From Bacteroidota bacterium (lineage in GTDB: Bacteria; Bacteroidota; Rhodothermia; Rhodothermales; JANQRZ01): DNA of 64,000 nt. Numbering within the stretch: position 1 is the first letter of the stretch; the number at the start of each line of letters is the position of its first letter. Location of the stretch: positions 19,431 to 83,430 of the forward strand of contig JBCDKT010000011.1 of assembly GCA_038746285.1 (NCBI GenBank), read 5' to 3'. Below are positions 4,634 through 30,356 of the stretch, piece by piece. Below the pieces are notes generated by a model. The model was not told the origin of the DNA. It worked only from the letters and a program-made list of their open reading frames with translations, and ran no database searches. The position numbers and the translations under genes were made by a program.

Positions 4634-6955
4634 GTGACGGAGGAGGACGGAACGATGAAGCCTGAGCCCACGCACCGCGCGTCACCGATCACGGCGAGGC
4701 CCTACCTCGTCGTCGCGGCGGTCTACGCGGCGGTTTGCCTCGCGCTCTGGCCGGTGCCGCTCCTCGGGCTGCTCCACGCCGAGTCGAGCGCCGTCGTCGC
4801 CGGGGTGGCGTTCTTCGCGTCGGGCCTGGCGGCGCTGGCACTGTTCCGGCGCGGCGACGATCTGTGGCCGGTCCTGCTCCGGCTGGAAGGACTGCTCGCG
4901 GTGCCGTGGGCACTGCTGACGGTGTCGCTTCTCTGGCGGCCGAACTGCGGCTACGCCCAGGGCTTCGGGCTTTTCCTACTCTTCGCCGTGCCGAGCGTGG
5001 CGCTTGCCGTCGCGCTCGTATTCGCGCTCGACGCGGTCGGGTGGCGGCGACGCGCGCTCTGGTTCGTGCTCGTCGGCCTCGGCGTGGCGGCCCTGCCAGT
5101 GGTGTGGGACCTCGGGCTGCACCCGCAGTTCTACACCTACAACCACGTCTGGGGCGGCGTCCTCGGCCCGATCTACGACGAAGAGCTGGCCGTCCGGCCC
5201 GGACTGTTCTGGTTTCGAGGGCTGACGCTGCTCTGGGTAGTAGCGCTCGTCCTTTTGGGACGAAGAGCGGAGGAGCGGAGGAACGGAAGAGCGGAAGACG
5301 GGCAGGTGCGAAGGGGGGGGCGTTCTTCCCCGCTTCCGCTCTTCCGCTCTTCCAAACCTGAGGCGTGGGCGCTGCTCGCCGTCGCCGTGCTCATCGGGCT
5401 GGCCTACGCCTTTTCGCCGCTGCTCGGGTTCAACACGACCGGGGAGGTGATCCGCGCGCGCCTCGGCAGCCACCTCGCCACGGAGCGGTTTGACATCTAC
5501 TACGACGCGGCGGCGATCTCGCCGGGCGAACTCCAGGTGATCGCCGATGCGCACGCTGTGCAGTACGACCGGCTCCGGCGGGCGCTCGGCGTGGAGGTGC
5601 CGGAGCGCATCGCGACCTACCTCTACCCAAACGCGCGGACGAAGGGAGCGCTGACGGGGGCAGCGCAGACGAGCGTGGCGCCGGTCTGGCTCCCGCGTCC
5701 GCAGATGCACCTCCTCGTGGGCCGCTTCGAGGCGTCGTTCGCGCACGAGTTGGTGCATGTCTTCTCGCGCGAGTTCGGCGGGATCCTACGCGCCTCGCCG
5801 GCGGTCGGGCTCGTTGAGGGGCTGGCCGTGGCGTTCGAGCCGCCGGACGGGGTGCCGTCGCCGGACGCGCAGGTGATCGCCGCCGCCCGCTACGGCGCGG
5901 GGCTGGGGGCCGAGCCTCTGGGTAGGGCCCTCGCGTCGCGGCTCTCGCCGCTCGGCTTCTGGACCGGGCGTGGGGCGGTGTCCTACACCACCACCGGCTC
6001 GTTCGTCGCCGACCTCTACCGGCGCTACGGGGCCGATCCGCTCCGGCAGGTCTACGCCTCGGGCGACTTCGAGCGGGTCTACGGCCTCCCGCTCGACACG
6101 CTCGCCGCCCGGTGGGCGGCCCGGCTCGATACGCTCCCGGACGATCCCGAAGCGACGGCTCTCGTCGCGCGCCGCTTCACGAGGCCCTCGCTCTTCGAGC
6201 GGCGCTGCCCGCACTGGGTCGAGCCGTGGCTCCGGGCCTACCGGGCGGGCGCGTCGGCTCTCGCCGCGGGCGAGGTCGACGAGGCCCTGCAGCAGTTCGA
6301 GCAGTCCATCGAGGTCGATCCGGCGCAGCCGTGGCCGCTCGCGGCCTGGGGCCGGGTGCTGCTCGCGCGCGGCGAGACCGACCGCGTGACGGAGCGCCTC
6401 GGTGCGGCCGTGGCGGCGGCCGACACGCTGGCGTCCCCGCTCTTGCTCAGCCGGCTCGGCGACGCCTACCGGCTGGCCGGAAGCAGGGCCGAGGCCAATG
6501 CGGTCTACCGGCGGGCCTGGGACGAGACGCCGGTCTACCGGCGCGAAGCGCGGGCGCGGCTCCGGCTGCGCCGCGACCTCTCGGCCGACGCGCTGCGAAC
6601 CCTGCTCACGCTCGACCCGTCCGGCGTTCGCGCCGAGCGCCTTGCCGAGCAGGCCGCGCCGGCGGCGAAGCTGATGGCCGGACTGCTCTGGGCCGACGCG
6701 CGCGACTACGCTGCCGCGCAAACGATCCTGAACGATGCCGAGTTGTCGGACGTGGAGCCGGAGCGCCTGGCCTGGGCCGGCCGGTTCGCCCACGCCGCCG
6801 GCGACCGGCTCGCAGCCGCTGCCCTCGCCGGAGAGGCCGCGAGCGCCTACGACGCGCTTGGAGCTGTCCACGCCGCCGCTCGGCAGCGCGACTATGCCGA
6901 CGCGCTGTGGTGGCTCCTACTGCGCGAGGACCCTGTGCTGTCCGCTCCTGGTTGA
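4634..6955 (+). CDS. Polytopic membrane protein with HExxH metallopeptidase-like domain and C-terminal TPR-like helical repeats
   Basis: The N-terminal ~200 aa are multiple hydrophobic helices. It has FAHELVHVF (HExxH) and an Ala/Leu/Arg-rich repeat C-terminus. It contains an in-frame repeat-element insertion at 5262-5353. Confidence 0.6.
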   Translation: MTEEDGTMKPEPTHRASPITARPYLVVAAVYAAVCLALWPVPLLGLLHAESSAVVAGVAFFASGLAALALFRRGDDLWPVLLRLEGLLAVPWALLTVSLLWRPNCGYAQGFGLFLLFAVPSVALAVALVFALDAVGWRRRALWFVLVGLGVAALPVVWDLGLHPQFYTYNHVWGGVLGPIYDEELAVRPGLFWFRGLTLLWVVALVLLGRRAEERRNGRAEDGQVRRGGRSSPLPLFRSSKPEAWALLAVAVLIGLAYAFSPLLGFNTTGEVIRARLGSHLATERFDIYYDAAAISPGELQVIADAHAVQYDRLRRALGVEVPERIATYLYPNARTKGALTGAAQTSVAPVWLPRPQMHLLVGRFEASFAHELVHVFSREFGGILRASPAVGLVEGLAVAFEPPDGVPSPDAQVIAAARYGAGLGAEPLGRALASRLSPLGFWTGRGAVSYTTTGSFVADLYRRYGADPLRQVYASGDFERVYGLPLDTLAARWAARLDTLPDDPEATALVARRFTRPSLFERRCPHWVEPWLRAYRAGASALAAGEVDEALQQFEQSIEVDPAQPWPLAAWGRVLLARGETDRVTERLGAAVAAADTLASPLLLSRLGDAYRLAGSRAEANAVYRRAWDETPVYRREARARLRLRRDLSADALRTLLTLDPSGVRAERLAEQAAPAAKLMAGLLWADARDYAAAQTILNDAELSDVEPERLAWAGRFAHAAGDRLAAAALAGEAASAYDALGAVHAAARQRDYADALWWLLLREDPVLSAPG
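5262..5353. repeat. Purine/pyrimidine inverted-repeat (hairpin) element, copy inside a CDS
   Basis: Left arm is GAAGAGCGGAGGAGCGGAGGAACGGAAGAGCGGAAGACG. Right arm is CGTTCTTCCCCGCTTCCGCTCTTCCGCTCTTCC. The 21-mer CTTCCGCTCTTCCGCTCTTCC (5333-5353) is identical to 10871-10891. Confidence 0.65.
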
Positions 6956-7049
6956 ACCCCGCGCCGGGCGACGCGGAAAAGGCTTGCCTTCTGCTCGCAA
7001 GGGCGGCATATTCGGGCCGTCCGCCTGCCACGTTTACCTCCCGCCTCCG

Positions 7050-8348
7050 ATGTCCCGATTCAACGCCGCTTGCTGGGTTCTGCTGCCCCTCTTCGCCCTC
7101 GCCGGGTGCGCGACCCTGGAAGAGGGACAGGACAACGGCGGGAGCACGTCGGCGGCGGGCACTGGCTACGCGACCTCGCGCACCGACGCCGCGATCAGCA
7201 CGGTGCAGCTCTACCGGACGGGAAACGAAAGCTCGCTGCCCGTCCTCCCCCTGGGCTCGGGCGAGACGCTCACGCTGGAGTTCGACCTCCTCGAGGACTT
7301 CGGTAAGCCGCTCAGCGTCTACTTCTACCACGCCGACCGCAACTGGCAGCGCAGCCTGCTCCCGGTCGAGTACCTCCGCACCTTCACCAGCGACGACCTG
7401 CGCGACTACGAGCCCTCGCTCGGGACCGAGGTCCGCTACACGCACTACACCTACCAATTCCCGAACGCCAACATCGGGTTCCTGCGCAGCGGCAACTACG
7501 TCCTCCGCGTGACCGAGGTGGGGCGCGAGCGCGAGGTGCTCTTCGAGCGGGCCTTCTTCCTCACCGAGCAGGCCGCCGAGATCCAGTTCGCGATCCAGGA
7601 CGGGCTGGCCGGCGGCGTCGGCGGCGGCTTCCTCCAGCCGGTCGCCCGCATCCGTCCGCCTTCGGCCTTCGACAGCCCGATCTACGACTACAACGTCTGC
7701 TTCGCCCGCAACGGGCGGTTCGCGCTCACGCGCTGCTCAGCCGAGCCGACGCTCGCCAGCGGGTCGCTCTTCCAGTTCTTCCTTCCGCGCGAGACCGCCT
7801 TCACCCCGGAGGAGCCGCTCTACGACCTCGACCTGGCGCTCCTCCAGACCGGCCCGCAGGTCTCGACTGTGGACTTCGAGACCTCGCCCTTTACCGTCAC
7901 GCTCGACCTGGACTACGCCCGCTTCGGCAGCGACCTCTTCGAGCGCGACCTGACGGGGCAGAGTCTCGTCTCGTCGGTGGTGGAGGACGCCGCCGGCCCG
8001 GCCGACACCGGGTCGGAGTACGTCGAGGTGCTCTTCCGCTACGTCCCGCAGGACGAGCAGCAGCTTGCTGGTCCGGTGATCCTCACGGGCAGCTTCAACA
8101 ACTGGGTGATCGACCCCGAGCGCGAGCTTGTGTGGAACGCCGAGGAGCGGTGGTACGAGGGCCGCCTGCTCGTCAAGCAGGGGCAGTACGTCTACAAGTA
8201 CGTCACCGACGACCCCGGCGAGCGCGAGCGCATCCGGCGGACGGTCGGCTTCGGGCAGCCGAACCTGTACACGGCCTTCGTCTACGTCTACGACCCGTCG
8301 TTCGACACCGACCGTCTCCTCGCCGTCAGCAACGCCCTCGGGCAGTGA
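7050..8348 (+). CDS. DUF5103 / type IX secretion plug-like lipoprotein with C-terminal CBM48-like beta-sandwich
   Basis: Lipobox LFALAGC after MSRFNAACWVLLP. YFYHADRNWQRSLLPVEYL...YTHYTYQFPN...SGNYVLRV matches the DUF5103 pattern as I remember it. I chose the internal start of ORF 6735..8348. Confidence 0.6.
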   Translation: MSRFNAACWVLLPLFALAGCATLEEGQDNGGSTSAAGTGYATSRTDAAISTVQLYRTGNESSLPVLPLGSGETLTLEFDLLEDFGKPLSVYFYHADRNWQRSLLPVEYLRTFTSDDLRDYEPSLGTEVRYTHYTYQFPNANIGFLRSGNYVLRVTEVGREREVLFERAFFLTEQAAEIQFAIQDGLAGGVGGGFLQPVARIRPPSAFDSPIYDYNVCFARNGRFALTRCSAEPTLASGSLFQFFLPRETAFTPEEPLYDLDLALLQTGPQVSTVDFETSPFTVTLDLDYARFGSDLFERDLTGQSLVSSVVEDAAGPADTGSEYVEVLFRYVPQDEQQLAGPVILTGSFNNWVIDPERELVWNAEERWYEGRLLVKQGQYVYKYVTDDPGERERIRRTVGFGQPNLYTAFVYVYDPSFDTDRLLAVSNALGQ

Positions 8349-18820: not shown

Positions 18821-19634
18821 ATCCCTGCTCCGGGAAGAGCGACTGGAAGCGGTCGGTCATCTGCTCGGCTTCGCGGCGGAGGGCATCGGCCTGGGCCTCG
18901 TTGACGGCGAAGACGCTGAGAATGCCGTCGAGGTGCGCGGCGCGCTCGGGGCCGTGCAGGTGGGCGAGGGTCCAGTACTCGTCGGCCCGGTCCATCGCGT
19001 CGTCGAACTCATCGGGGTCGGTCACGCCTTCGAGCATCGGCTCGGCGAAGAGGGCGCGGGCGTCCGGCTCGCTCAGGCCGTTCGGCCCGTAGGTCCGCTC
19101 GGCGGGCGGGGCGGTCTGCCCGTGGGCGAAAGCCGGGTGCGCGAGGAGCGCGTCGAAGCCGAGCGTGTCGGCCTCCACGGCCTCGGCGAGCCTGTGGTCG
19201 TCCGGCGTGAGCGCGTCCCAGTGGGTCTCGAGCGTGTCGAGGAGCCGGTCGAAGTCGGCCTCGTCCTCGGGTTCGGCGTCCGGGCCAATCAGGAACGCAG
19301 CCAGGTCGGCGTAGCGCCGGGTGCGCTCCTTCGCCGGCAGCGAGAAGTAGGCCCAGAGTACGCGGGCGGCTTCCAGCACGACGACGGTCGTCTCGTCGGC
19401 CTCGTCGGGCTGCGCCATCACCTCGAAGGCCGCTGCCGGGTCGAGGTCGTAGAGGTCGAACAGCGGCTCGGCGAAGAGCGCGAGCGAGGCGAAGCTGAGG
19501 CCGGTCTCGTCCTGTCCGAGGGCGCGCACCTTGCGCTGGTGCTGGACGAAGAACACGTCGGCGTCGGTCATGGCGGAGGCTCCGTCGCCGCCCAGCGATG
19601 CGTAGGCAGGGTCCAGCAGGTTGAGGTCGTGCAT
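18819..19634 (-). CDS. Hypothetical acidic protein
   Basis: 271-aa ORF with coding-like composition and no recognisable motif. Confidence 0.5.
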   Translation of the reverse strand: MHDLNLLDPAYASLGGDGASAMTDADVFFVQHQRKVRALGQDETGLSFASLALFAEPLFDLYDLDPAAAFEVMAQPDEADETTVVVLEAARVLWAYFSLPAKERTRRYADLAAFLIGPDAEPEDEADFDRLLDTLETHWDALTPDDHRLAEAVEADTLGFDALLAHPAFAHGQTAPPAERTYGPNGLSEPDARALFAEPMLEGVTDPDEFDDAMDRADEYWTLAHLHGPERAAHLDGILSVFAVNEAQADALRREAEQMTDRFQSLFPEQG

Positions 19635-19777: not shown

Positions 19778-21907
19778 TCAGACCATCCCGGAGCGCTTGC
19801 GGAGCACCCACTCCGCCGCGAGGAGGGCGATCACGACGGCGAGCAGCCACGCGAGGTGCCACAACTCAGTCTCGCGCTCCTCCTCGACGAGGCGCGGCCC
19901 GAAGCCGCCCGCCGCGAGGCGTGCCGGGAGCTCGTCCAGGTCGGCCGGGTCGATCACGGTGCCGCCGGAGCGGCGGGCGAGGCCGCGCATCAGGGCGGCG
20001 TCGGCCTGGGTGTCGCGGAACTCGAGCGCGAGCGCGCCGACGGCGAACGCGCCTCGGTCGGTGCCGAGGGCCGCGCCCGCGCGCTCGGCCTCGGCGCGGA
20101 ACGTGTAGTCGCCCTCGGGTAGCGTGCCCGCGTCGAGCGTGTAGCGGCCGCTCCCGACCGCGCGCATCGCGAAGGGTGAGGTGGTCCCGTCGGGGGCGGT
20201 GATGCGGACCTGGACCGAGGCGTCGGGAATGGGCGCGAGGCTTTCGTCGTAGACCTGCCCGGTGAATTGCACCGCCTCGCCCTCGCCGAAGAGCGAGCGC
20301 ACGGGGCGGACGCGGACCGGGCGGTCGTCCTCGCGGGTCGTCAGCCAGCGCAGCAGGTTCTCGACGAGGCCGGGGTAGAACCCTGCGACGGCATCGAGGT
20401 CGGCCGGGACGTTCTGCCAGCGCCAGGTCCCGGCGGCGAGGAGGGCGGCGGAGCGCGCACGACCTCGCTGCCGGACGAGGAGCATGGGGTCGCCGAGCGG
20501 AACGCCGCGCACGCGGACCGTCGCGAGGACGCGGGCGTCGGGGGCGGCGGCCCAGCGGCTGTCGCTCAGCGCGACGGGCGGGAGCCGGTCGAGGAGGCCC
20601 GGCGGAACGGCTGGGACCTGGAGGACCGGGTGGAGCGCGCCTGCCGCGGTCGGGACGAGGGCGGCCTCGGTGAACGTTGTGCGGACGACTTCAGGTATCG
20701 CTGGAAGTGCATCGCCGAAAGTAGACCGGAGCGAGGGAAGATCCGTCTGTCGTGTGAGAAGAAACAGGAGCGGGACGCCGGCCCCGGCGGCGGCGGCGAC
20801 GCGCTGCGCCGTTGCCCGGTCGGCCGCCCGCCCCGGCCACCCAGCGAGGAGGACGGCGTCGAACCCTTCGAGCGTGGGGAGGCGGCCCTCGTAGAACGTA
20901 CCCGGCGAGCGCTGGGTGCGCGGGACGACCTCAAGGTTCGGGTCGGTTGCGAGGACCTGGCGGAGCGCGGCGAGGTCGGGGCCGGGCGCGGCGGCGAGGA
21001 GCAGGACGCGGCGCCGGTTCGAGAGCACGCGCACGGCGACGGCCTCGGTGTTGTTGCCGTACGTCACCTCGCCGTCGAACCGGGTCACGGCAATCGTGTA
21101 GCGGCGGAGCCCCTCGGCTTCGGGCACGAGCGAGAGGTCGACCGTCGCCTCGACTCCGCCCTCGGGGAGCGTCACCTGCTGCGAGGCGAGACGCTCGCCG
21201 CGCTCGAAGAGCGAGACCGTCGCCCGCTCGCCGCCGAAGCCGTCGGCCCGGACGGCGACCTGCACGGGGAGTTCGACGCCGGCGTAGGCGATCTCGTTGG
21301 TCGTCACGCGGGCAACCAGCACGTCGCGCTGCTGCGTCGTGTCGCCGACGGTGGCGGTGTAGATCGGCACGTCGTAGCGCTCGGCGAGGTAGAGCGGGTT
21401 GCGGCCGGTGTTGTAGCGCCCGTCCGAGATCAACAGCACGCCGCCGAGGTTCTGCCCGTCGAGGTCGGCCTCGACCCGGCTGAGCGCCCCGGCGATGTCA
21501 GTCCGCACGCCGTCGAACCGGAGCGAGTCGCGGGCGTCGAGCGGCGAAGCTTCCGCGTCGAAGCTGTAGACACGCGTCTCGCCGTCCACGTCGGGAATCC
21601 GGCGGAGGGCGTCGCGGGCCGTCGCGGCTCCGTCGCCCGCGCCGTCCTCGCGGCCGAGGCTCTGGCTGCCGTCGACGAGCACGGCCAGCACCGGCGGCTC
21701 CTCGGTCGCCTCGACCTGCCGGAGCACGGGTTCGAAGAGCAGCAGGAGAACGACGAAGAGCGCGGCCCCGCGCAGCGCCATCAGCACGGCCCGGCGGCCC
21801 GGCGCGAGGCGCGGCACGCTCCGCCCGTAGGTCCACCACGTCAGCCCCGCTGCCGCGAACAGGCAGGCGACGAGCAGCAGAGGGGAGTAGCCGAGCGAGA
21901 GGTCCAT
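19778..21907 (-). CDS. Membrane protein with N-terminal double-TM anchor and vWA-like / large extracytoplasmic region (Bat-like)
   Basis: N-terminus SPLLLVACLFAAAGLTWWTY...RRAVLMALRGAALFVVLLLLFEP resembles the TIGR02226 double-TM anchor. VLAVLVDGSQSL is a vWA MIDAS-like start. There is a C-terminal TM. Confidence 0.55.
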   Translation of the reverse strand: MDLSLGYSPLLLVACLFAAAGLTWWTYGRSVPRLAPGRRAVLMALRGAALFVVLLLLFEPVLRQVEATEEPPVLAVLVDGSQSLGREDGAGDGAATARDALRRIPDVDGETRVYSFDAEASPLDARDSLRFDGVRTDIAGALSRVEADLDGQNLGGVLLISDGRYNTGRNPLYLAERYDVPIYTATVGDTTQQRDVLVARVTTNEIAYAGVELPVQVAVRADGFGGERATVSLFERGERLASQQVTLPEGGVEATVDLSLVPEAEGLRRYTIAVTRFDGEVTYGNNTEAVAVRVLSNRRRVLLLAAAPGPDLAALRQVLATDPNLEVVPRTQRSPGTFYEGRLPTLEGFDAVLLAGWPGRAADRATAQRVAAAAGAGVPLLFLLTRQTDLPSLRSTFGDALPAIPEVVRTTFTEAALVPTAAGALHPVLQVPAVPPGLLDRLPPVALSDSRWAAAPDARVLATVRVRGVPLGDPMLLVRQRGRARSAALLAAGTWRWQNVPADLDAVAGFYPGLVENLLRWLTTREDDRPVRVRPVRSLFGEGEAVQFTGQVYDESLAPIPDASVQVRITAPDGTTSPFAMRAVGSGRYTLDAGTLPEGDYTFRAEAERAGAALGTDRGAFAVGALALEFRDTQADAALMRGLARRSGGTVIDPADLDELPARLAAGGFGPRLVEEERETELWHLAWLLAVVIALLAAEWVLRKRSGMV

Positions 21908-23944: not shown

Positions 23945-24030
23945 CGGAGCCCCTGCCGGGGTGGTGAAATTGGTAAACACAGCAGACTTAAAATCTGCCG
24001 GTCCGTACGGGCCTTGCGGGTTCAAGTCCC
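23945..24030 (+). tRNA. tRNA-Leu (anticodon UAA), 86 nt, CCA not encoded
   Basis: Acceptor stem GCCGGGG/CCTCGGC, D-arm GGTGAAATTGGTAAACAC, anticodon stem-loop GCAGA-CTTAAAA-TCTGC, long variable arm, and T-arm GCGGGTTCAAGTCCCGC. Confidence 0.93.
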
Positions 24031-24073
24031 GCCCTCGGCACTCGTTTTCTCGCTTGCATCTCGATCCTCCGCT

Positions 24074-25450
24074 ATGCCCGCCCAGACCGTAGACGACGCC
24101 TACATCGCCGTCAAGCCCGACGAGCCGCTCCAGGCGGGCGATGCCTACTACGAGGACTTCGCCGTGTGGCGCGGAGACGAGTCCGTCAGCGACCTCATCG
24201 CGCGGATGATCCGCCGGTCTAACCGGGCAACCCCCGTCGACCACGTCAAGCAACTCTTCACCGGGCACCGGGGGTGCGGAAAGTCGTCCGAGCTGCTCCG
24301 GCTGAAAGCGAGGCTCGAAGAGCAGGGCTTCTTTGTCGCCTACCTCGACTCGACCTTTGCCCTCGACGTGAGCGACGTCAGCTACACCGACGTGCTCATC
24401 GCCCTCGTCCTCGCCGTAGCGCAGGCGGCAGACGAAGCCGCCGATCTCGATCTCGACGTGCCGGACGGGATCGTGGAGGGCCTCAACCGTCGTCTTGGAG
24501 CGTGGGTGCTCGAAGACACCGTGACGCGCGGGGGAGAAACAGAGGTGGAAGCGGAGGCGAAGCTCGGCGGCGGGATTCCCGGCTTGCTCAAGCTCGCCCT
24601 CGGCTTGCAGTCTACCCTCAAGGCCGGGGCGGAGAAGAAGCAGACCCTCCGCACCACCATCGACCAGGGCGTCACCGCTTTCCTGGACGACCTCAACATC
24701 ATCATCGACGACCTCCAGATCCAACTGAGAGACCGGGGCAAAGAGGGCCTCGTCCTCATCATGGATAGCCTCGACCGCATCGTGCTCAAGACGCACGCCG
24801 ACGGGCGCGGGAACACGCACACTGACCTCTTCATCGACCACGCCTACCACCTCAAAGCGCCCCGCTGCCACGTCGTCTACACCGTCCCCATCTCGATCTG
24901 CTTCGAGCGGAACCTGCTCCCGCTCTACGACCGGCCGCGCATCCTCCCGATGGTGAAGGTCCGGGAGCGGCAGCCGGGCCAGGAGGAGGGCGACCCGTGC
25001 GAGGGAGCCCTCAGCGCAATGACTGAGGCCGTAGCGCGGCGGATGGACCTCGGCCTCTTCGAAGACCCGGACGACGTGCGGCGGCTCTGCCAGGCCTCGG
25101 GCGGCCACATCCGCGACCTGATGCATCTTCTCCGGGACGCCTGTAACTACAGCGAGGAGCAAATCACGCCCCGCACCGTAGACCGAGCGATCCAGGGACT
25201 TACCAACATCTACGACCTCCTCGTCCGGGACGCCGACCTCCCCAAGCTGGTCCAGGTCCACCGCGAGAAGCGGCTCCCCGCCGACCCCGAGTACGCGCGG
25301 CTCCCGTACCACCTCCTCGTGCTCCAGTACAAGAACGGCGAGCAGTGGGCCGACGTGCACCCCGCCGTCCTGCGGATGTCCAAGTTCCGCCGAGCACTCG
25401 ACGCGGTAGACGACGAGACCGATCCCGATGGCCGACCCGACGCCGACTGA
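24074..25450 (+). CDS. P-loop NTPase with long insert between Walker A and B (KAP/STAND-like), 459 aa
   Basis: Walker A GHRGCGKS (aa 64-71) and Walker-B-like LVLIMD (aa 226-231). I chose the internal ATG 24074 because the ORF 23777..25450 reads through the tRNA. Confidence 0.75.
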   Translation: MPAQTVDDAYIAVKPDEPLQAGDAYYEDFAVWRGDESVSDLIARMIRRSNRATPVDHVKQLFTGHRGCGKSSELLRLKARLEEQGFFVAYLDSTFALDVSDVSYTDVLIALVLAVAQAADEAADLDLDVPDGIVEGLNRRLGAWVLEDTVTRGGETEVEAEAKLGGGIPGLLKLALGLQSTLKAGAEKKQTLRTTIDQGVTAFLDDLNIIIDDLQIQLRDRGKEGLVLIMDSLDRIVLKTHADGRGNTHTDLFIDHAYHLKAPRCHVVYTVPISICFERNLLPLYDRPRILPMVKVRERQPGQEEGDPCEGALSAMTEAVARRMDLGLFEDPDDVRRLCQASGGHIRDLMHLLRDACNYSEEQITPRTVDRAIQGLTNIYDLLVRDADLPKLVQVHREKRLPADPEYARLPYHLLVLQYKNGEQWADVHPAVLRMSKFRRALDAVDDETDPDGRPDAD

Positions 25451-27059
25451 CCAGGCTCCGCTTACCGAGGAAGACCAGGAGCAACGCCGAGCGCTCACGC
25501 GGGCGCTCCGGTGGTCCGACGGGTTCGCGCTCCTCTTCGCCCGCGTCAACGTCCCACGCCGGCGCAACATCCTCGCCGAGCGCCTCAAGCAGGAGGTAGC
25601 GGACGAGATCCGCGTCCTAGAGATGCGGCTGACCGAGCCGGTGGCCGACCTCGCTTACCGGATCGCCGAGCGGCTGCGGGAGGACGCCGAGGCAGGCGGC
25701 GATGGGGAAGCGGTGCGGCGGGCGGTCTTCGTCTACGGGCTGGAGCACAGCCTGCCCTCTGGCGGCGAGCCGATAGGCACTCGCCGCCACGCCCCGCTCG
25801 CCGTGCTCAACTTCAAGCGCGAACTGCTCAAAGAGACCGCCCCCGTCCCCATTGTGGTCTGGCTCCCCGAGTTCGCCCTCCGCACGCTCATGGAGGGCGC
25901 TCCCGACCTCTGGGCCTGGCGCGGCGGCCTCTTCGCCTTCTCCACACCCCGGGCTGAGACAGAGCAGACGTGGGACACGCTGCGCGACCAGGGTTGGTTG
26001 GGAGAATACGACGGGATGACTCTCGCCGAGCGCCGGGAGCGCGCTGCCACCCTCACCGCTCTGCTGGACGAATACGACGCCCGTCCTGATGCTGCCGAGC
26101 CGGAGATAGAGGATATCCGTCTCAGCCTGACTGATCGGCTCGCACGACTTCGCAACCGGCTAGGGGACTACGCGGGAGCCGAGCCGCTCTACCGCCGAGC
26201 GCTCGAAGTGCGCGAGCGGGTGCTGGGACCCGAACATCCTGATACCATTGCTTCAGTCAACGGTCTCGGTTTTCTCCTCCGAGCGAAAGGCGACTATGCT
26301 GGAGCCGAGCCTCTTTGTCGCAGAGCACTAGAAGTGCGCGAACGGACACTTGGGCCAGAACACCCCGACACGCTCACCTCGGTCAGCCACCTCGGGATTC
26401 TCCTTCGGTCACAAGGTGACTACGCCAGAGCTGAGCCCTTCTATCGCCGGGCCCTCAGCGGGCGTGAGCGTGTCTTGGGCGCAGATCATCTAGCCACTCT
26501 CGTGGCAGTCAATAACCTCGCTTTCCTCCTCCGAGTTCAAGGTAGCTCTTCCGAGGCAGAGTCTCTCTACCGTCGGGCCCTCGAAGCTCGTGAGCGCGTG
26601 CTCGGCCCTGATCATCCTAGCACTCTTGTCTCAGTAGATGGCCTTGGGGTGCTCCTTCGAGAGCAAGGCGACTATACCGAGGCCGAGCCACTCTTGCGAC
26701 GAGCACTCATCGAGCGGAGGCGCGTGCTTGGTCTACAGCATCCTCGCACCCTTTCTTCAACTAGCAATCTCGGTCTCCTTTTGCGGCTGCAAGGTGACTA
26801 TGTCGGAGCCGAGCCGCTCTACCGGCAGGCCCTCGAAGGGCGCAAACGTGTACTCGGTCTGGAGCATCCCGCTACCCTCTTGTCCGTGAGCAACCTCGGG
26901 CTTCTCCAGGAAGACCTCGGAAATTACCCCAAGGCGGAATCGCTCTACCGCCACGCTCTCGAAGCTCAGGAGAGAGTGCTTGGCCCAGAGCACCCCAGTA
27001 CGAAAGTCACCCGCAGCAATCTCTCGACGTTACTGAAAGAGAAGGGAGAGCAGGGATAA
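25428..27059 (+). CDS. TPR protein: unknown ~230-aa N-terminal domain + ~7 kinesin-light-chain-type 42-aa TPR units
   Basis: It contains repeated GDYxxAEPLYRRALExRERVLGPEHPxTLxSVxxLGxLL units (126-bp period from about 26160). It overlaps the upstream NTPase gene by 23 nt. Confidence 0.85.
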   Translation: MADPTPTDQAPLTEEDQEQRRALTRALRWSDGFALLFARVNVPRRRNILAERLKQEVADEIRVLEMRLTEPVADLAYRIAERLREDAEAGGDGEAVRRAVFVYGLEHSLPSGGEPIGTRRHAPLAVLNFKRELLKETAPVPIVVWLPEFALRTLMEGAPDLWAWRGGLFAFSTPRAETEQTWDTLRDQGWLGEYDGMTLAERRERAATLTALLDEYDARPDAAEPEIEDIRLSLTDRLARLRNRLGDYAGAEPLYRRALEVRERVLGPEHPDTIASVNGLGFLLRAKGDYAGAEPLCRRALEVRERTLGPEHPDTLTSVSHLGILLRSQGDYARAEPFYRRALSGRERVLGADHLATLVAVNNLAFLLRVQGSSSEAESLYRRALEARERVLGPDHPSTLVSVDGLGVLLREQGDYTEAEPLLRRALIERRRVLGLQHPRTLSSTSNLGLLLRLQGDYVGAEPLYRQALEGRKRVLGLEHPATLLSVSNLGLLQEDLGNYPKAESLYRHALEAQERVLGPEHPSTKVTRSNLSTLLKEKGEQG

Positions 27060-27083: not shown

Positions 27084-27254
27084 TCAGTTCATCTGCCCGT
27101 CGAAGAGATCGGTGTAGAGGTCGTCGTTGGCGACGCTCAGGTCGATGGGGTTGTCACCCGCGCCGGGGCGGGCGAGGAAAAGGAGCGCGAGGGGCGAAGC
27201 AACCGCGGCTACGGCGACCCAGAGGACGCGCTGCGAAAGAGAAAGTCGAGTCAT
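27084..27254 (-). CDS. Possible small signal-anchored protein (56 aa)
   Basis: MTRLSLSQRVLWVAVAAVASPLALLFLARPGAGDNPIDL... The support is only an ORF plus a signal-like N-terminus. Confidence 0.25.
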   Translation of the reverse strand: MTRLSLSQRVLWVAVAAVASPLALLFLARPGAGDNPIDLSVANDDLYTDLFDGQMN

Positions 27255-27439
27255 GAGAGTAGGAGCAGGGTGGAGGATAATGGATACCGTTACGTCGGTG
27301 TGCGGCATGAAATGACGCAAGGCGGCATGAGTTCGATGAACAGTGTTAAGTATCCGTGCGCTTTTCCTGCCGCTCACCGTTGCGTTCCTCGCCCGGCACT
27401 GCTATTCTTAGGCCATCCCTTTCCACTGTCCTCACGCTC

Positions 27440-27877
27440 ATGGCCGCTCCTCAGTACTGGACCCCCGAATTCGTCGAAGCCTTCGTCGAAGCCCTCAACA
27501 CCGACGCCGGCTTCCAGAAGGCCGCCGGCTCGTTCTCCGACACGATCGTGCTGCGCTGCCTGGACCACCCGAGCGGCGAGGACGTCGAGGCCGCCTACAC
27601 GTTTGAGGACGGCGAGGTGACCGACGTGTCGCTCTGGATGGAAGACGCTGGCGACCCCGACTTCCGCGACGACCCGTTCGACAAGTCCGCCGCGCTCGCC
27701 CGCGCCACGGCGCCGTACCCGGTCTGGGTCGCGCTCGACAAGGGCGAGATGAACCCGCTCGCCGCGCTCACCTCGCCCGACTACCAGATCGAAGGTCCGA
27801 AGCTGAAGATCATGGCCAACATGGGCGTCCTGAACGGCATGGGCGACGTCGCCTCGGGCGTCGAGAAGACGTACTGA
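27440..27877 (+). CDS. SCP2 sterol-carrier-like domain protein
   Basis: WTPEFVEAFVEALNTDAGFQKAAGSFSDTIVL...GEMNPLAALTSPDYQIEGPKLKIMANMGVLN is the SCP2-type pattern. I chose internal ATG 27440. Confidence 0.65.
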   Translation: MAAPQYWTPEFVEAFVEALNTDAGFQKAAGSFSDTIVLRCLDHPSGEDVEAAYTFEDGEVTDVSLWMEDAGDPDFRDDPFDKSAALARATAPYPVWVALDKGEMNPLAALTSPDYQIEGPKLKIMANMGVLNGMGDVASGVEKTY

Positions 27878-28008
27878 CCCGTGAAGCGTGATGCGTGAGG
27901 GTGCCGCCACTGACGGCTCGAAGCGCTCTCGCGGCTCACGTTTCACACCTCGGCGGGTCCAACGCCGACGGCTATCTCCATTCCTCTCCTCATCCAACCG
28001 CACCTCCC

Positions 28009-28875
28009 ATGGCCAAGAAGAAAGTCACCATCGTCACCAAGAAGAAAAAGAGCAAAGCGGCCGGGGCCGCCGACGCGTCCAGCCCGAAGGCGGGCACCAG
28101 GAAAACGACTGCCAAGAAGGCCGCCCCGAAGAAGTCCGACGGTCTGCTCGGTGTGCTGCCGAGCCTGCCCAGCCTTCCTGACCTGCTCGACTTCCCGGCG
28201 GGCGTCGCCGACACCGCCCGAGAGGTCTGGATGGCGGGCATCGGCGCGCTCTCGACCGTCGAGGAGATGGGGGCCGAGATGTTTCAGTCGCTCGTGCAGA
28301 AGGGCGAGTACTGGGAGCAGGAGAGCCGGAAGAAGCTGACCGCGGCGTCGAAGACCGCCAGCGACGCCGCCCAGGGCGCGAAGGTGGCGGCGGGGAGCCT
28401 GAGCAAGAAGCCCATCGAGTGGACGAGCGCCGCCGAGACCCAGATCCAGCGCGTGGTCGAGGACTCCATCGAAGGCGTTCTGCACCGCCTCAATGTCCCG
28501 ACCCACGACGAGGTGCAGGACCTCATCGGGCGCGTCGCGGCGCTCTCCGGCAAGGTGGACGCGCTCACCCAGCAGCGCGCCGCGGCCGAGCCGAAGCAGC
28601 CGTCCGCGTCGAAGGCCGATAAGAAGACCTCGCCGGAGAGTGCGTCTTCGAAGCGAAGCGCCCCCAGCGTGCCGGTCTACCACGTTGCCCCGCACGACGA
28701 GGGGTGGGCCGTCGAGAAGGAGGGGAGCAGCCGCGCCACGAGCGTGCACGGGACGAAGGCTGAGGCCGTCAAGGCCGGGCGCGAGCGCGCCAAGTCGGGC
28801 CAGACGGGTCGCCTCGTTCTCCACCGCCAGGACGGGACGATCCAGGACACGTTCAGCTACGGCGAGGACGGCTAG
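28009..28875 (+). CDS. Phasin-like (PHA-granule-associated protein family) with Lys-rich histone-like N-tail and C-terminal DUF2188
   Basis: Three parts: the tail MAKKKVTIVTKKKKSKAAG...AKKAAPKK, the phasin core REVWMAGIGALSTVEEMGAEMFQSLVQKGEYWEQESRKKL, and the C-terminal YHVAPHDEGWAVEKEGSSRATSVHGTKAEAVKAGRERAK...LVLHRQDGTIQDTFSYGEDG (DUF2188 pattern). Confidence 0.7.
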   Translation: MAKKKVTIVTKKKKSKAAGAADASSPKAGTRKTTAKKAAPKKSDGLLGVLPSLPSLPDLLDFPAGVADTAREVWMAGIGALSTVEEMGAEMFQSLVQKGEYWEQESRKKLTAASKTASDAAQGAKVAAGSLSKKPIEWTSAAETQIQRVVEDSIEGVLHRLNVPTHDEVQDLIGRVAALSGKVDALTQQRAAAEPKQPSASKADKKTSPESASSKRSAPSVPVYHVAPHDEGWAVEKEGSSRATSVHGTKAEAVKAGRERAKSGQTGRLVLHRQDGTIQDTFSYGEDG

Positions 28876-28973: not shown

Positions 28974-30356
28974 TCACGTCCCAAACTCTGCGGTCAGCGC
29001 GTCGATTTCGTTGTGGAAGGCCGCGACGAGGGCCTCGGGGTCGGGGGCCATCTTGGCGTCGGTGGCGATGCCGAGCATGACGGTGCCGGCGTAGCTCATC
29101 ACGCTCACGCCGAGGCCGATGTCGCCCGCGCGCGGGACCCAGAACATGATTCGGCGGATCTCGTTGCCGTAGAAGTGCAGGCACTCGCGCGGCCCCGGCA
29201 CGTTCGTCACGACAGCTGAGACTTTCGACGAGAGGACCTCGACTACCTGTTCGTGCAGCAGCGCCGGGCCGGCCCCGATCGTCTGCAGGATGCCATAGGC
29301 GACGGCGGGCTCGGCGGAGCTTTTGATGATGTCCATCTGCCGCTTGATCTCCATCAGGCGCTCCCGGGCCCCTGCGATGCCGACCGGGAGCGAGAGGAAG
29401 ACGAGTCCGAAGACGTTGCCGAGGTCGAACGCCCGCTCGTAGGGGCGAAGGTTGACCGGGATTGCCGAGCGGATCTCGACCCCTGCCGTCGGCTCGCCGT
29501 GCCCGGCGAGGTAGCGCCGGAGCGCACCCGTGACGGCCGCCATCAGCACATCGTTCAGCTTGCCGCCCGCGCCGTGCGCAATCGCCTTCACGGCGCCGAG
29601 CGGGAGCGGAACCGACCAGGCGACGCGCTTGACGACGGTCGCCGGAGCCTTGAAGCGCGTGTCCGAGTCCGACGACATGAGCGCGATCTTGCTCGCCGCC
29701 GCTCCCATGCTCATGCCTTGCCGCGCCCACTCCAGCGCTTTGCCCGGACGCTGCACCGCGCCGAGTCCGGTCGTGATGGCACCCGCCGCAGCCCTGCCGA
29801 GCCCGTCGATGGCAGTCCCGGCCCGGCGGAAGAGGCGGCCCGTCAGGCTCTCCCCGGTGCGGTCTCGCCCGTAGGCCGGCGTCGCCCGCGCCGGGTCGAA
29901 CATCTCGTCCGCCATCGCGAGGAGTACGTGGATCAGCGCGATGCCGTCGCCGATGGAGTGGTGCAGCCGGCCGATGAGGGCGCTTCCCCCGTCGAACGAC
30001 TCGACGAGGTGGAACTGCCACGGCGATTTCGAGAAGTCGAGTGGGGTGCTCATCAGCTCGCTCACCAGCTCTTCGAGCGAGGTCTTGCTGTTCGGCTCGG
30101 CGAGGCCCGCCCGGTGGACGTGGGCGTCGATGTCGAAGTGGGGATCGGTCTCCCACATCGCGGTCGGACCTTTGTAGACTACCCGCTGCCGGAAGCGCTC
30201 GAAGATCAGCAGCCGCTCCTCGACGAGTCGCTTCAGGTCCTCCAGCTTCATCGGCTCCTCGAAGCCAATGATGCCGACGATCGTCATCGGGTTGACGGGA
30301 GACTCCATGCGGAGCCAGGCCACGTCGGCGGCGCCGAGTTTCTGCCTGCGTGCCAT
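28974..30356 (-). CDS. Wax ester synthase / diacylglycerol acyltransferase (WS/DGAT)
   Basis: Catalytic HHSIGDG (HHxxxDG), an N-terminal WLRMESPVNPM motif, and 460 aa. The 853-aa ORF 27943..30504 in another minus-strand frame is spurious. Confidence 0.9.
   Translation of the reverse strand: MARRQKLGAADVAWLRMESPVNPMTIVGIIGFEEPMKLEDLKRLVEERLLIFERFRQRVVYKGPTAMWETDPHFDIDAHVHRAGLAEPNSKTSLEELVSELMSTPLDFSKSPWQFHLVESFDGGSALIGRLHHSIGDGIALIHVLLAMADEMFDPARATPAYGRDRTGESLTGRLFRRAGTAIDGLGRAAAGAITTGLGAVQRPGKALEWARQGMSMGAAASKIALMSSDSDTRFKAPATVVKRVAWSVPLPLGAVKAIAHGAGGKLNDVLMAAVTGALRRYLAGHGEPTAGVEIRSAIPVNLRPYERAFDLGNVFGLVFLSLPVGIAGARERLMEIKRQMDIIKSSAEPAVAYGILQTIGAGPALLHEQVVEVLSSKVSAVVTNVPGPRECLHFYGNEIRRIMFWVPRAGDIGLGVSVMSYAGTVMLGIATDAKMAPDPEALVAAFHNEIDALTAEFGT

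Follow-up and report, generated by a model that had tools for sequence, protein, structure and literature searches.

The published system that comes closest to the locus described here is the nSTAND2 operon, a mobile two-gene unit in which a gene for an active STAND (signal-transduction ATPase having numerous domains) protein with a winged helix-turn-helix (wHTH) is followed by a gene for an inactive nSTAND2 module with a wHTH, tetratricopeptide repeats (TPRs), and a HEPN or GT4 domain; a toroidal hetero-multimer of active and inactive subunits has been proposed for it (Kaur, Burroughs, Iyer, Aravind 2021, eLife 10:e70394). Another point of reference is DS-41 (AAA2), an experimentally validated anti-phage ATPase that is encoded by a single gene, has no TPR partner (DefensePredictor, Science 2026), and has also been reported in Halobacteria. 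Here, we analyzed a pair of overlapping genes from a Rhodothermales bacterium (phylum Bacteroidota; GenBank assembly GCA_038746285.1, contig JBCDKT010000011.1), of which gene 1 encodes an ATPase and gene 2 a TPR protein with an N-terminal domain of its own, hereafter the N-domain. The window, that is, the whole stretch of DNA analyzed, comprises 64,000 nt (positions 19,431 to 83,430 of the contig, forward strand), and all coordinates refer to it.

Our interpretation, to which we give about even weight, is that the locus is a co-inherited two-gene module in which a nucleotide switch of the STAND/NLR (nucleotide-binding, leucine-rich-repeat receptor) type is split over two polypeptides. What sets the module apart is a dedicated, probably pseudo-ATPase, coupling domain within a design that joins a STAND ATPase to a repeat sensor. 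Below we describe the anatomy, co-conservation, and modularity of the pair, and propose how its parts may interact, what may bind to them, and which role they may serve.

Anatomy of the two proteins

The module lies entirely on the forward strand and comprises the following features (aa, amino acids; invariance in gene 1 refers to 53 homologues throughout).

24074..25450, +, gene 1, 458 aa, ATG at 24074
24263..24286, +, Walker A GHRGCGKS of gene 1 (aa 64-71); G64, H65, G69, and K70 invariant
24383..24733, +, helical insert of gene 1 (aa ~104-220), from strand 2 to Walker B; predicted secondary structure and model confidence
24749..24766, +, Walker B strand LVLIMD of gene 1 (aa 226-231); D231 invariant; modeled as a strand at 226-231
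25001..25222, +, helical AAA+ lid of gene 1 (aa ~310-383) with a sensor-2-like SGGHxRDL motif; DnaX gamma/tau lid profile match
25229..25417, +, C-terminal winged helix of gene 1 (aa ~386-448) with W425...H429-P430; structural model and Foldseek
25428..25450, +, overlap of gene 1 and gene 2, 23 nt
25428..27059, +, gene 2, 543 aa, probable pseudo-ATPase N-domain plus TPR array
25467..26123, +, N-domain of gene 2 (aa ~14-232), a predicted P-loop-less, AAA+-like (beta-alpha)5 domain; structural model and Foldseek
26172..27053, +, seven 42-aa (126-nt) TPR units of the kinesin-light-chain type in gene 2; TPR_12 E 5.5e-100, TPR_10 E 5.5e-85

Gene 1 was modeled by AlphaFold2 (AF2) from the 53 homologues with a predicted local distance difference test score (pLDDT) of 90.3 and a predicted template modeling score (pTM) of 0.89. 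The chain begins with a helical segment in which P15, D23, R25, Y26, R33, and G34 are conserved, and in the model the P-loop follows strand 1. Walker A and Walker B are about 155 residues apart, and the model fills this distance with a helical insert, of which the loop at aa 148-168 is disordered and of low confidence. The Walker B strand has a lone conserved acidic residue at its end, D231, followed by S-L-D-R. Beyond it come a sensor-1-like YTVP motif with invariant T270 and P272, the lid, in which G343, G344, R347, and D348 are conserved and to which the DnaX gamma/tau profile aligns over aa 314-372, and a winged helix made of helices and a beta hairpin at 416-428, with W425 and P430 invariant and H429 nearly so. 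The initial annotation of this locus, made from the sequence, had placed the two Walker motifs at aa 64-71 and 226-231 with an insert of ~150 aa between them; these positions hold, K70 and D231 are invariant, and the insert is helical in the model.

When the gene 1 model was compared with the Protein Data Bank (PDB) by Foldseek, Orc1/Cdc6 (2qby_A) ranked first (E 2.4e-6), followed by ORC4, TnsC, CED-4, and RdrA, with mS29 lower in the list. Orc1/Cdc6 and CED-4 chains were matched over the full length of the model. Pfam gave sub-threshold matches only (ATPase_2, 19.3 bits against a cut-off of 33.2; AAA_16, 19.7 bits against 32.6), the NB-ARC and NACHT models did not match, PF07693 was not among the matches at E<=1, and none of the PADLOC models (library dated 2023) matched gene 1. 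Judged as a STAND protein in the sense of Leipe et al. 2004, gene 1 has the P-loop core with Walker A and Walker B and, in the AF2 model, the tripartite order of nucleotide-binding domain (NBD), lid, and winged helix; it lacks a curated Pfam match (AAA_16, ATPase_2, NB-ARC, NACHT), and it ends after the winged helix, with neither sensor nor effector on the NTPase chain. We conclude from the conserved motifs and the structural model that gene 1 is predicted to be an intact P-loop ATPase whose fold, ORC/Cdc6-CED-4/STAND-like, combines a core that bears a helical insert with a lid and a winged helix. The earlier view that it resembles KAP/STAND-type NTPases and not housekeeping ATPases agrees with the sub-threshold Pfam matches and with the PDB matches by sequence and by structure.

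The N-terminal ~230 aa of gene 2 are Pfam-negative. They align across phyla, with N128, R131, D160, and W164 invariant in 57 sequences. The AF2 model of this N-domain, computed from 17 sequences, shows a (beta-alpha)5 unit after a helix; its overall pLDDT is 74, and in the core (aa 11-110 and 131-150) most 10-residue blocks have a pLDDT of 85-95. The first 50 PDB matches found by Foldseek were mostly AAA+/STAND proteins, with E about 1e-4, and included RAD17-RFC, Hsp104, Rubisco activase, ORC, NLRP9, and Avs4; the degenerate AAA+ proteins Rif2, an ORC4-derived pseudo-ATPase, and TM0771, which is delta'-like, matched as well. At the place where a P-loop would be expected, the N-domain family has FA(R/x)xN-x-P, which supports a P-loop-less NTPase core. 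We therefore think it probable that the N-domain is a pseudo-ATPase, and the modeled fold and its AAA+/STAND matches agree with an earlier suggestion, read from strand-like segments, that the N-terminus of gene 2 is an NTPase core without a P-loop.

The rest of gene 2 is the TPR array. That it holds about seven units of 42 aa had been seen before, and this number and length stand; the units had been called near-identical, which they are not, with a mean protein identity of 59% (45-79%) and a DNA identity of 60-75% at a period of 126 nt. Pfam, NCBIfam, and PADLOC scans detected no effector domain in either gene, in line with the initial annotation, which had put the NTPase and the TPRs on separate chains with no recognizable effector. 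Its coordinates for gene 2, the length of 543 aa, and the 23-nt overlap were all reproduced; for gene 1 the coordinates are right and the length is 458 aa, not 459. The overlap suggests tight translational coupling of the two genes.

Co-inheritance of the pair and its exchangeable sensor part

Homologues of gene 1 number more than 623, are 430-470 aa long, and are labeled "hypothetical", "ATP-binding protein", or "KAP family NTPase"; a few of them carry precomputed KAP_NTPase (PF07693) or NPHP3_N Pfam matches. Relatives occur at 568 loci in 185,579 species genomes (one genome per species), or about 0.3%. For the N-domain, an exhaustive phmmer search gave 1211 cluster representatives (50% identity) at E<=1e-3 and 314 at E<=1e-10. 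Among the 150 N-domain matches listed, the domain was always N-terminal, complete proteins were mostly of 400-600 aa, and no fusion with gene 1 was present. With more than 623 gene 1 homologues and 1211 N-domain clusters, the observation of these two genes lies far beyond chance.

We examined the 80 best of the 568 loci, with neighboring open reading frames (ORFs) called heuristically. Eighty-six gene 1 loci entered the pairing test, five of which were left out as contig ends; in every locus with enough downstream DNA (81/81), an N-domain ORF lay directly downstream of gene 1 on the same strand. Reciprocally, a gene 1 homologue was found immediately upstream of all three N-domain proteins chosen from the phmmer search. 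The junctions of homologous pairs were always tight, with an overlap of 8-29 nt or a 25-nt gap. Moreover, distance matrices of gene 1 and the N-domain were correlated over 68 pairs (r = 0.82, Mantel p = 0.001), from which it follows that the two are inherited together and diverge together. When flanking ORFs were clustered all against all, no third conserved gene family emerged across 83 loci; the clusters consisted only of antisense ORFs and lineage-specific synteny. We are thus close to certain that the two genes form a genuine functional unit. The check on co-occurrence that had been proposed for it has come out positive in the forward test, the reciprocal test, and the co-variation of distances. 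The claim that the pair is undescribed also holds in the profile searches, where gene 1 and the N-domain fall within no Pfam, NCBIfam, or PADLOC model; we found no paper describing the pair, which may sit unnamed among 589 STAND clades (Lee et al. 2026).

The spread of the pair is patchy and crosses domains. Bacterial hosts include Rhodothermales and Cytophagia, KSB1, Chloroflexota, Acidobacteriota, and Planctomycetota, the Gammaproteobacteria Methylococcales and Thiotrichales (Thiothrix, Thioploca, Thiomargarita, Leucothrix), cable bacteria, and cyanobacteria; archaeal hosts belong to two lineages, Halobacteria and Methanophagaceae. Many of these lineages are filamentous or multicellular (Thiothrix, Thioploca, Thiomargarita, cable bacteria, Chloroflexota, cyanobacteria). 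Some genomes contain more than one copy: two were found in one Electrothrix metagenome-assembled genome (MAG; L029 and L067), two in one Dehalococcoidia MAG (L026 and L080), and several on plasmids of Nostoc sp. UHCC 0302. Such multiple copies represent paralogous expansion, as is typical of sensor families. In four loci (L051, L064, L077, and L085), gene 1 is split over at least two frames (around 5800-7400 or 3-1244); these copies are either pseudogenes or assembly frameshifts, and L064 comes from a long-read-style MAG.

The part that follows the N-domain varies strongly in length and type. Of 57 partner proteins, 56 have TPR_12 and consist of the N-domain and TPRs only, and the 25 commonest Pfam families over the whole set are all TPR-type or helical-repeat models. 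Some rarer variants depart from this plan. On Acaryochloris marina pREB2 and on a plasmid of Nostoc sp. ATCC 53789, gene 1 is followed by a protein of ~1830 aa with an N-domain (E 1.6e-26 and 2.7e-21, respectively), helical repeats, and 14 WD40 repeats; in Nostoc sp. UHCC 0302, it is followed by a 2059-aa protein with N-domain, nSTAND1, WD40, and TPR parts. On plasmid 4 of Calothrix sp. NIES-4101 (L090, 6977-14484), two gene-1-type ATPases in succession, of which the second has a fused TIR_2, precede a third gene of 1300 aa with two tandem N-domains and nSTAND1, whose record annotation reads WD-40 repeat-containing. A pair of ATPases thus faces a pair of N-domains, which fits a 1:1 pairing of ATPase and N-domain, and this 2:2 arrangement is the best indirect pointer to a 1:1 interaction. 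In a further locus (L087; GCA_024449935.1, JAANSS011420263.1, 3-4982), a gene 1 homologue of 37% identity, cut by the contig end, is followed by a 1106-aa protein with N-domain, NB-ARC, and TPR_12 and then by an overlapping gene of the endonuclease/exonuclease/phosphatase type (Exo_endo_phos, EEP); the name of this contig suggests a very fragmented, possibly non-bacterial assembly. Taken together, gene 1 and the N-domain are the constant parts of the module, and the sensor after the N-domain is the exchangeable one. In an accession look-up, the supplementary files of Kaur et al. 2020 and 2021 that were searched did not list the cyanobacterial variant proteins.

Comparison with described systems

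The pair shares its plan with nSTAND2 operons. In both, the first gene encodes an active NTPase with a winged helix, and the second encodes an eroded NTPase module followed by TPRs; here the adjacent genes for the active and the apparently inactive NTPase overlap by 23 nt. We compared both proteins by hhalign with an nSTAND2 profile rebuilt from 10 sequences of the published alignment, and the probabilities were 0.2% for the N-domain (E 0.29) and 0.4% for gene 1. The inactive nSTAND2 protein keeps its wHTH and ends in HEPN or GT4, whereas gene 2 consists of a core alpha/beta domain and TPRs with no effector. The listed nSTAND2 examples are from Pseudomonas and E. coli; members of the present family come from Rhodothermales, Chloroflexota, Acidobacteriota, Thiotrichales, cable bacteria, cyanobacteria, and archaea. 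Thus the pair would work like nSTAND2, which is the closest published concept, and is not a demonstrable member of it, because no profile similarity was detected and no effector is present.

With single-chain STAND/NLR proteins (Avs, bNACHT, NB-ARC-TPR, MalT), the pair has in common that an ATPase of NBD-lid-winged-helix build is linked with a TPR or WD40 sensor, and there are Foldseek matches to CED-4 for gene 1 and to NLRP9 and Avs4 for the N-domain. The nearly invariant H429 in the winged helix of gene 1 is a candidate counterpart of the histidine with which STAND proteins contact bound ADP (MHD-like motif). It differs in that the sensor sits on a separate polypeptide, joined through a dedicated, probably pseudo-ATPase, domain, and in having no N-terminal effector. 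Avs itself was rejected as an assignment on account of the split architecture, the lack of an effector, and the lack of a PADLOC Avs match.

The RADAR protein RdrA, a KAP NTPase, is the best PDB match of gene 1 by sequence (8fnu, E 1.4e-4) and the sole one below 1e-3; 8hr8 and 8fnu are also among its Foldseek matches, and the spacing of Walker A and Walker B in 8fnu is of similar length. The alignment is out of register at Walker B, so we read RdrA only as a distant relative with a similarly long insert, and RADAR was set aside as an identification: the partner is a TPR protein and not the RdrB adenosine deaminase, and gene 1 has no PADLOC match. Gene 1 contains no convincing transmembrane segment; the highest 19-residue Kyte-Doolittle value is 1.63, in a helix with charged ends. 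It is therefore not a KAP NTPase in the defining sense, and assignment to that family fails likewise for want of a convincing transmembrane insert and of a PF07693 match.

ORC/Cdc6 and clamp loaders resemble the pair in structure, gene 1 having 2qby_A and ORC4 as its best Foldseek matches and the N-domain matching RAD17-RFC, TM0771, and Rif2, and their assemblies supply the principle that inactive subunits complete an ATPase assembly. Sequence identity is just 8-18%, and in contrast to them, the pair has no replication context, has a TPR sensor attached, and is an accessory module of patchy occurrence.

The single-gene DS-41 and the Sll1717-family P-loop ATPases (NCBIfam NF047389) are, like gene 1, about 450 aa long. 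Several gene 1 homologues show a weak colinear similarity to them from Walker A to Walker B, with E to 1.5e-7 for Sll1717 and to 4.7e-5 for DS41_1; gene 1 of the window itself reaches 13.5 bits against the Sll1717 model (cut-off 75). Membership in DS-41 (NF053860) was rejected, with 10 bits for gene 1 and 22.5 bits for the best family member against a cut-off of 370. The ternary iSTAND/MoxR-vWA system, in which genes for MoxR AAA+ and vWA proteins accompany that of an inactive STAND protein, was also dismissed, there being no third gene in 83 loci and no MoxR or vWA theme among the Pfam families of the neighbors.

Proposed mechanism, role, and genomic context

We propose that the N-domain would dock 1:1 onto the gene 1 ATPase, by analogy with inactive ORC and clamp-loader subunits, and would in this way tether the TPR sensor to the ATPase switch, with its invariant R131 possibly contributed in trans to gene 1. 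Gene 1 and gene 2 may form a mixed oligomer, in which binding of a ligand by the TPRs would shift the nucleotide state and oligomerization of gene 1. The output would come from gene 1 itself, through its winged helix or through ATP turnover, or from a protein encoded elsewhere, since the window copy encodes no effector.

As to what such a switch is for, an immune-type (conflict) sensing role seems to us the likeliest single answer, with a probability somewhat short of even; it is favored because variants swap in WD40, NB-ARC, or nSTAND1 parts and some add TIR or an EEP nuclease. The surroundings of cyanobacterial copies include integrases, transposases, toxin-antitoxin genes, and a NACHT gene; the Acaryochloris copy, for example, lies among HicAB and RelE toxin-antitoxin genes, a NACHT gene, and integrases. 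Several observations weigh against this assignment or against the split-switch model beneath it. Neither the window locus nor 56/57 partner proteins contain an effector; the variants that bear one are few and from other phyla, and what they do may not hold for the TPR-only form. The neighbors of TPR-type pairs are mostly housekeeping genes, and among 119 neighbor ORFs from 29 loci scanned with PADLOC and Pfam, genuine defense matches were few (a type I restriction endonuclease, a HamB-like helicase, and PDC-S70). IMG/VR viral contigs and GenBank phages contained no copies, and PADLOC gave no match for gene 1. Finally, the N-domain was modeled with moderate quality (pLDDT 74, Foldseek template modeling scores of 0.37-0.48), and a profile comparison of gene 1 with the N-domain detected no sequence homology. 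A defense reading is plausible and receives no support from local context; the enrichment of defense neighbors that the initial annotation had put up for checking did not materialize, as housekeeping genes predominate around TPR-type pairs.

One further feature, immediately upstream of the pair, matters to the question of its origin.

23955..24041, +, tRNA-Leu(UAA), ARAGORN; Rfam RF00005, 61.5 bits

The role could be regulatory instead: the TPRs would bind an endogenous protein or peptide, and the winged-helix ATPase would control transcription or the assembly of a complex, as in MalT- or AfsR-like switches. Housekeeping contexts at most TPR-type loci, the syntenic position of the pair in two Rhodothermales genomes, the missing effector, and the C-terminal winged helix of gene 1, whose model resembles the DNA-binding initiators Orc1/Cdc6 along its entire length, would all suit such a switch. 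It is harder to square with a pair found in just about 0.3% of species genomes and scattered over bacteria and archaea, with the absence of a conserved, functionally linked neighbor, with a sensor so variable in length and type, with relatives fused to TIR, NB-ARC, or nSTAND1 or adjoining an EEP nuclease, and with the toxin-antitoxin, integrase, transposase, and NACHT genes around cyanobacterial copies; we regard it as unlikely, if still the most serious competitor. A good deal less probable, in our judgment, is that the two genes are a complete abortive-infection system with the ATPase as the effector, which would deplete ATP or coat DNA in the manner of ORC or TnsC after the TPR partner has sensed a phage protein. 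The module is indeed self-contained, with no third conserved gene, gene 1 matches AAA+ proteins that load onto or bind DNA (Orc1/Cdc6, TnsC), and its family has weak, sub-threshold similarity to the NCBIfam model of the validated DS-41. Against this stand the lack of a defense-island context, the score of only 10 bits for the window gene 1 against DS41_1 (cut-off 370), and the lone conserved acidic residue, D231, that ends the Walker B strand. Compared with motor ATPases, slow switch NTPases more typically have a single acidic Walker B residue of this kind.

Assignment of the pair to an already described system, as a diverged nSTAND2 operon, RADAR (RdrA/RdrB), KAP/Tmn, or Avs, is very improbable. 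The nSTAND2 design of an active STAND-wHTH gene before an inactive one with wHTH, TPRs, and effector, the top PDB sequence match to RdrA (E 1.4e-4), and the precomputed KAP_NTPase or NPHP3_N matches on some homologues speak for it. They are outweighed by the hhalign values against the nSTAND2 alignment (0.2% and 0.4%), by the absence of HEPN or GT4, of an RdrB-like deaminase, of a PADLOC match, and of a transmembrane insert, by the alignment of the RdrA IIDDLD motif to an insert helix and not to Walker B of gene 1, and by the single-chain build of Avs with its N-terminal effector. The remaining explanation, that the pair is cargo of a recently integrated tRNA-linked genomic island, we rejected as largely refuted. 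It had been put forward as horizontal acquisition at the tRNA, and it draws on the position of the pair directly downstream of a tRNA gene and on the fall of GC to about 0.60 in the latter half of gene 2 and in the spacer after it. None of the marks by which such islands are recognized (an integrase, an att repeat, deviant composition of the whole insert) was found: the neighbors of the window pair include no integrase, and no att-like direct repeat of the tRNA 3' end was detected at the locus. Another Rhodothermales genome (L002), whose gene 1 is only 73% identical, has the same arrangement of tRNA-Leu and pair together with the same upstream genes, and a tRNA is absent beside the pair in 7/7 other loci. 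The GC content at third codon positions (GC3) is host-like in gene 1 (0.88) and the N-domain (0.84), compared with 0.88-0.94 in flanking genes, and is 0.595 in the TPR segment. Because only the TPR part is compositionally odd, recent acquisition as an island is not supported; a low GC in the TPR region had been noticed correctly, and it is confined to that region. The deviation in the TPRs is moreover family-wide and goes in both directions.

We return to the split STAND/NLR-type switch and to its possible immune role. As a tentative extension, rather unlikely as it stands, the pair could be the minimal form of a hitherto unrecognized hub-and-adaptor immune architecture in which a pseudo-ATPase plug joins swappable sensors and effectors to an ATPase hub. 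The sensors would be TPRs, WD40 repeats, or whole NB-ARC or nSTAND1 receptors, the effectors TIR or an EEP nuclease, and the hub ORC/KAP-like; the architecture would be spread over bacteria and archaea and enriched in filamentous and multicellular lineages, and its effector-less TPR form would act via an effector encoded in trans or by the host, or via the ATPase itself. The split-switch model, if right, would mean that an NLR-like receptor can be assembled from separate chains that co-evolve, with a dead ATPase domain coupling sensor to switch, a principle so far proposed for nSTAND2 only, from comparative genomics. With at least 568 species genomes and 1211 N-domain clusters, the family is a large one; it is present in both prokaryotic domains, and naming and testing it would allow many hypothetical genes to be annotated. 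Variants with TIR, WD40, and nSTAND1 from cultured cyanobacterial strains offer a tractable entry point. Should the pair prove to be a housekeeping regulator instead, it would even so represent a TPR-controlled ATPase switch of a new class.

The compositional anomaly of the TPRs deserves separate description. In the window, GC3 steps from about 0.87 to 0.50-0.65 exactly at the junction of N-domain and TPRs (deviant region 25970-27059), and the TPR segment of L002 (12060-12854) shows a step too. Over 54 partner genes (L002-L086), the GC3 of the TPRs regresses toward about 0.5 in high- and low-GC hosts. Where two repeats have the same residue, its codon is shared in 41% of cases, against the 52% predicted from host-like usage. 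The anomaly may reflect either cassette exchange between hosts or selection, which would diversify codons between repeats or act against repeat recombination.

The tRNA gene, confirmed by ARAGORN and Rfam, ends 32 nt before gene 1; adjacency had been recognized earlier with a gap of 43 nt, which is too large. A terminator scan found no terminator-like site between the two. The tRNA-Leu(UAA) is upstream context only and not a conserved part of the module. Plasmid copies of the pair occur only on cyanobacterial megaplasmids and on one Acidisarcina plasmid. In the neighbor scan, the commonest Pfam families were of the housekeeping kind (glycine cleavage, RecG, sigma-54 activators, and MiaB-like enzymes), and matches to Cas3 were discounted, as they appear to be generic DEAD/RecG-type helicases.

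The pair of the window has ordinary flanking genes: upstream, those for a cytidine deaminase, a Na/Ca exchanger, and a membrane protein of 709 aa, and downstream, those for a phasin-DUF2188 protein and a WS/DGAT wax-ester synthase. The 709-aa protein, a predicted membrane protein (19778-21907, reverse strand), has no Pfam match on record, and its counterpart in L002 is 689 aa long and occupies the same position. The spacer 3' of gene 2 (27084-27500) is low in GC (about 0.59-0.61); it contains a sigma-70-like match at 27253-27281 and small ORFs without Pfam matches at 27084-27377 (reverse strand) and 27356-27877 (forward strand). Further downstream, the gene at 27895-28875 (forward strand) encodes a 326-aa protein with a phasin domain, as in polyhydroxyalkanoate (PHA) granule proteins, and a C-terminal DUF2188. 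It adjoins the WS/DGAT wax-ester synthase gene (28974-30356, reverse strand), and together the two look like a storage-lipid cluster.

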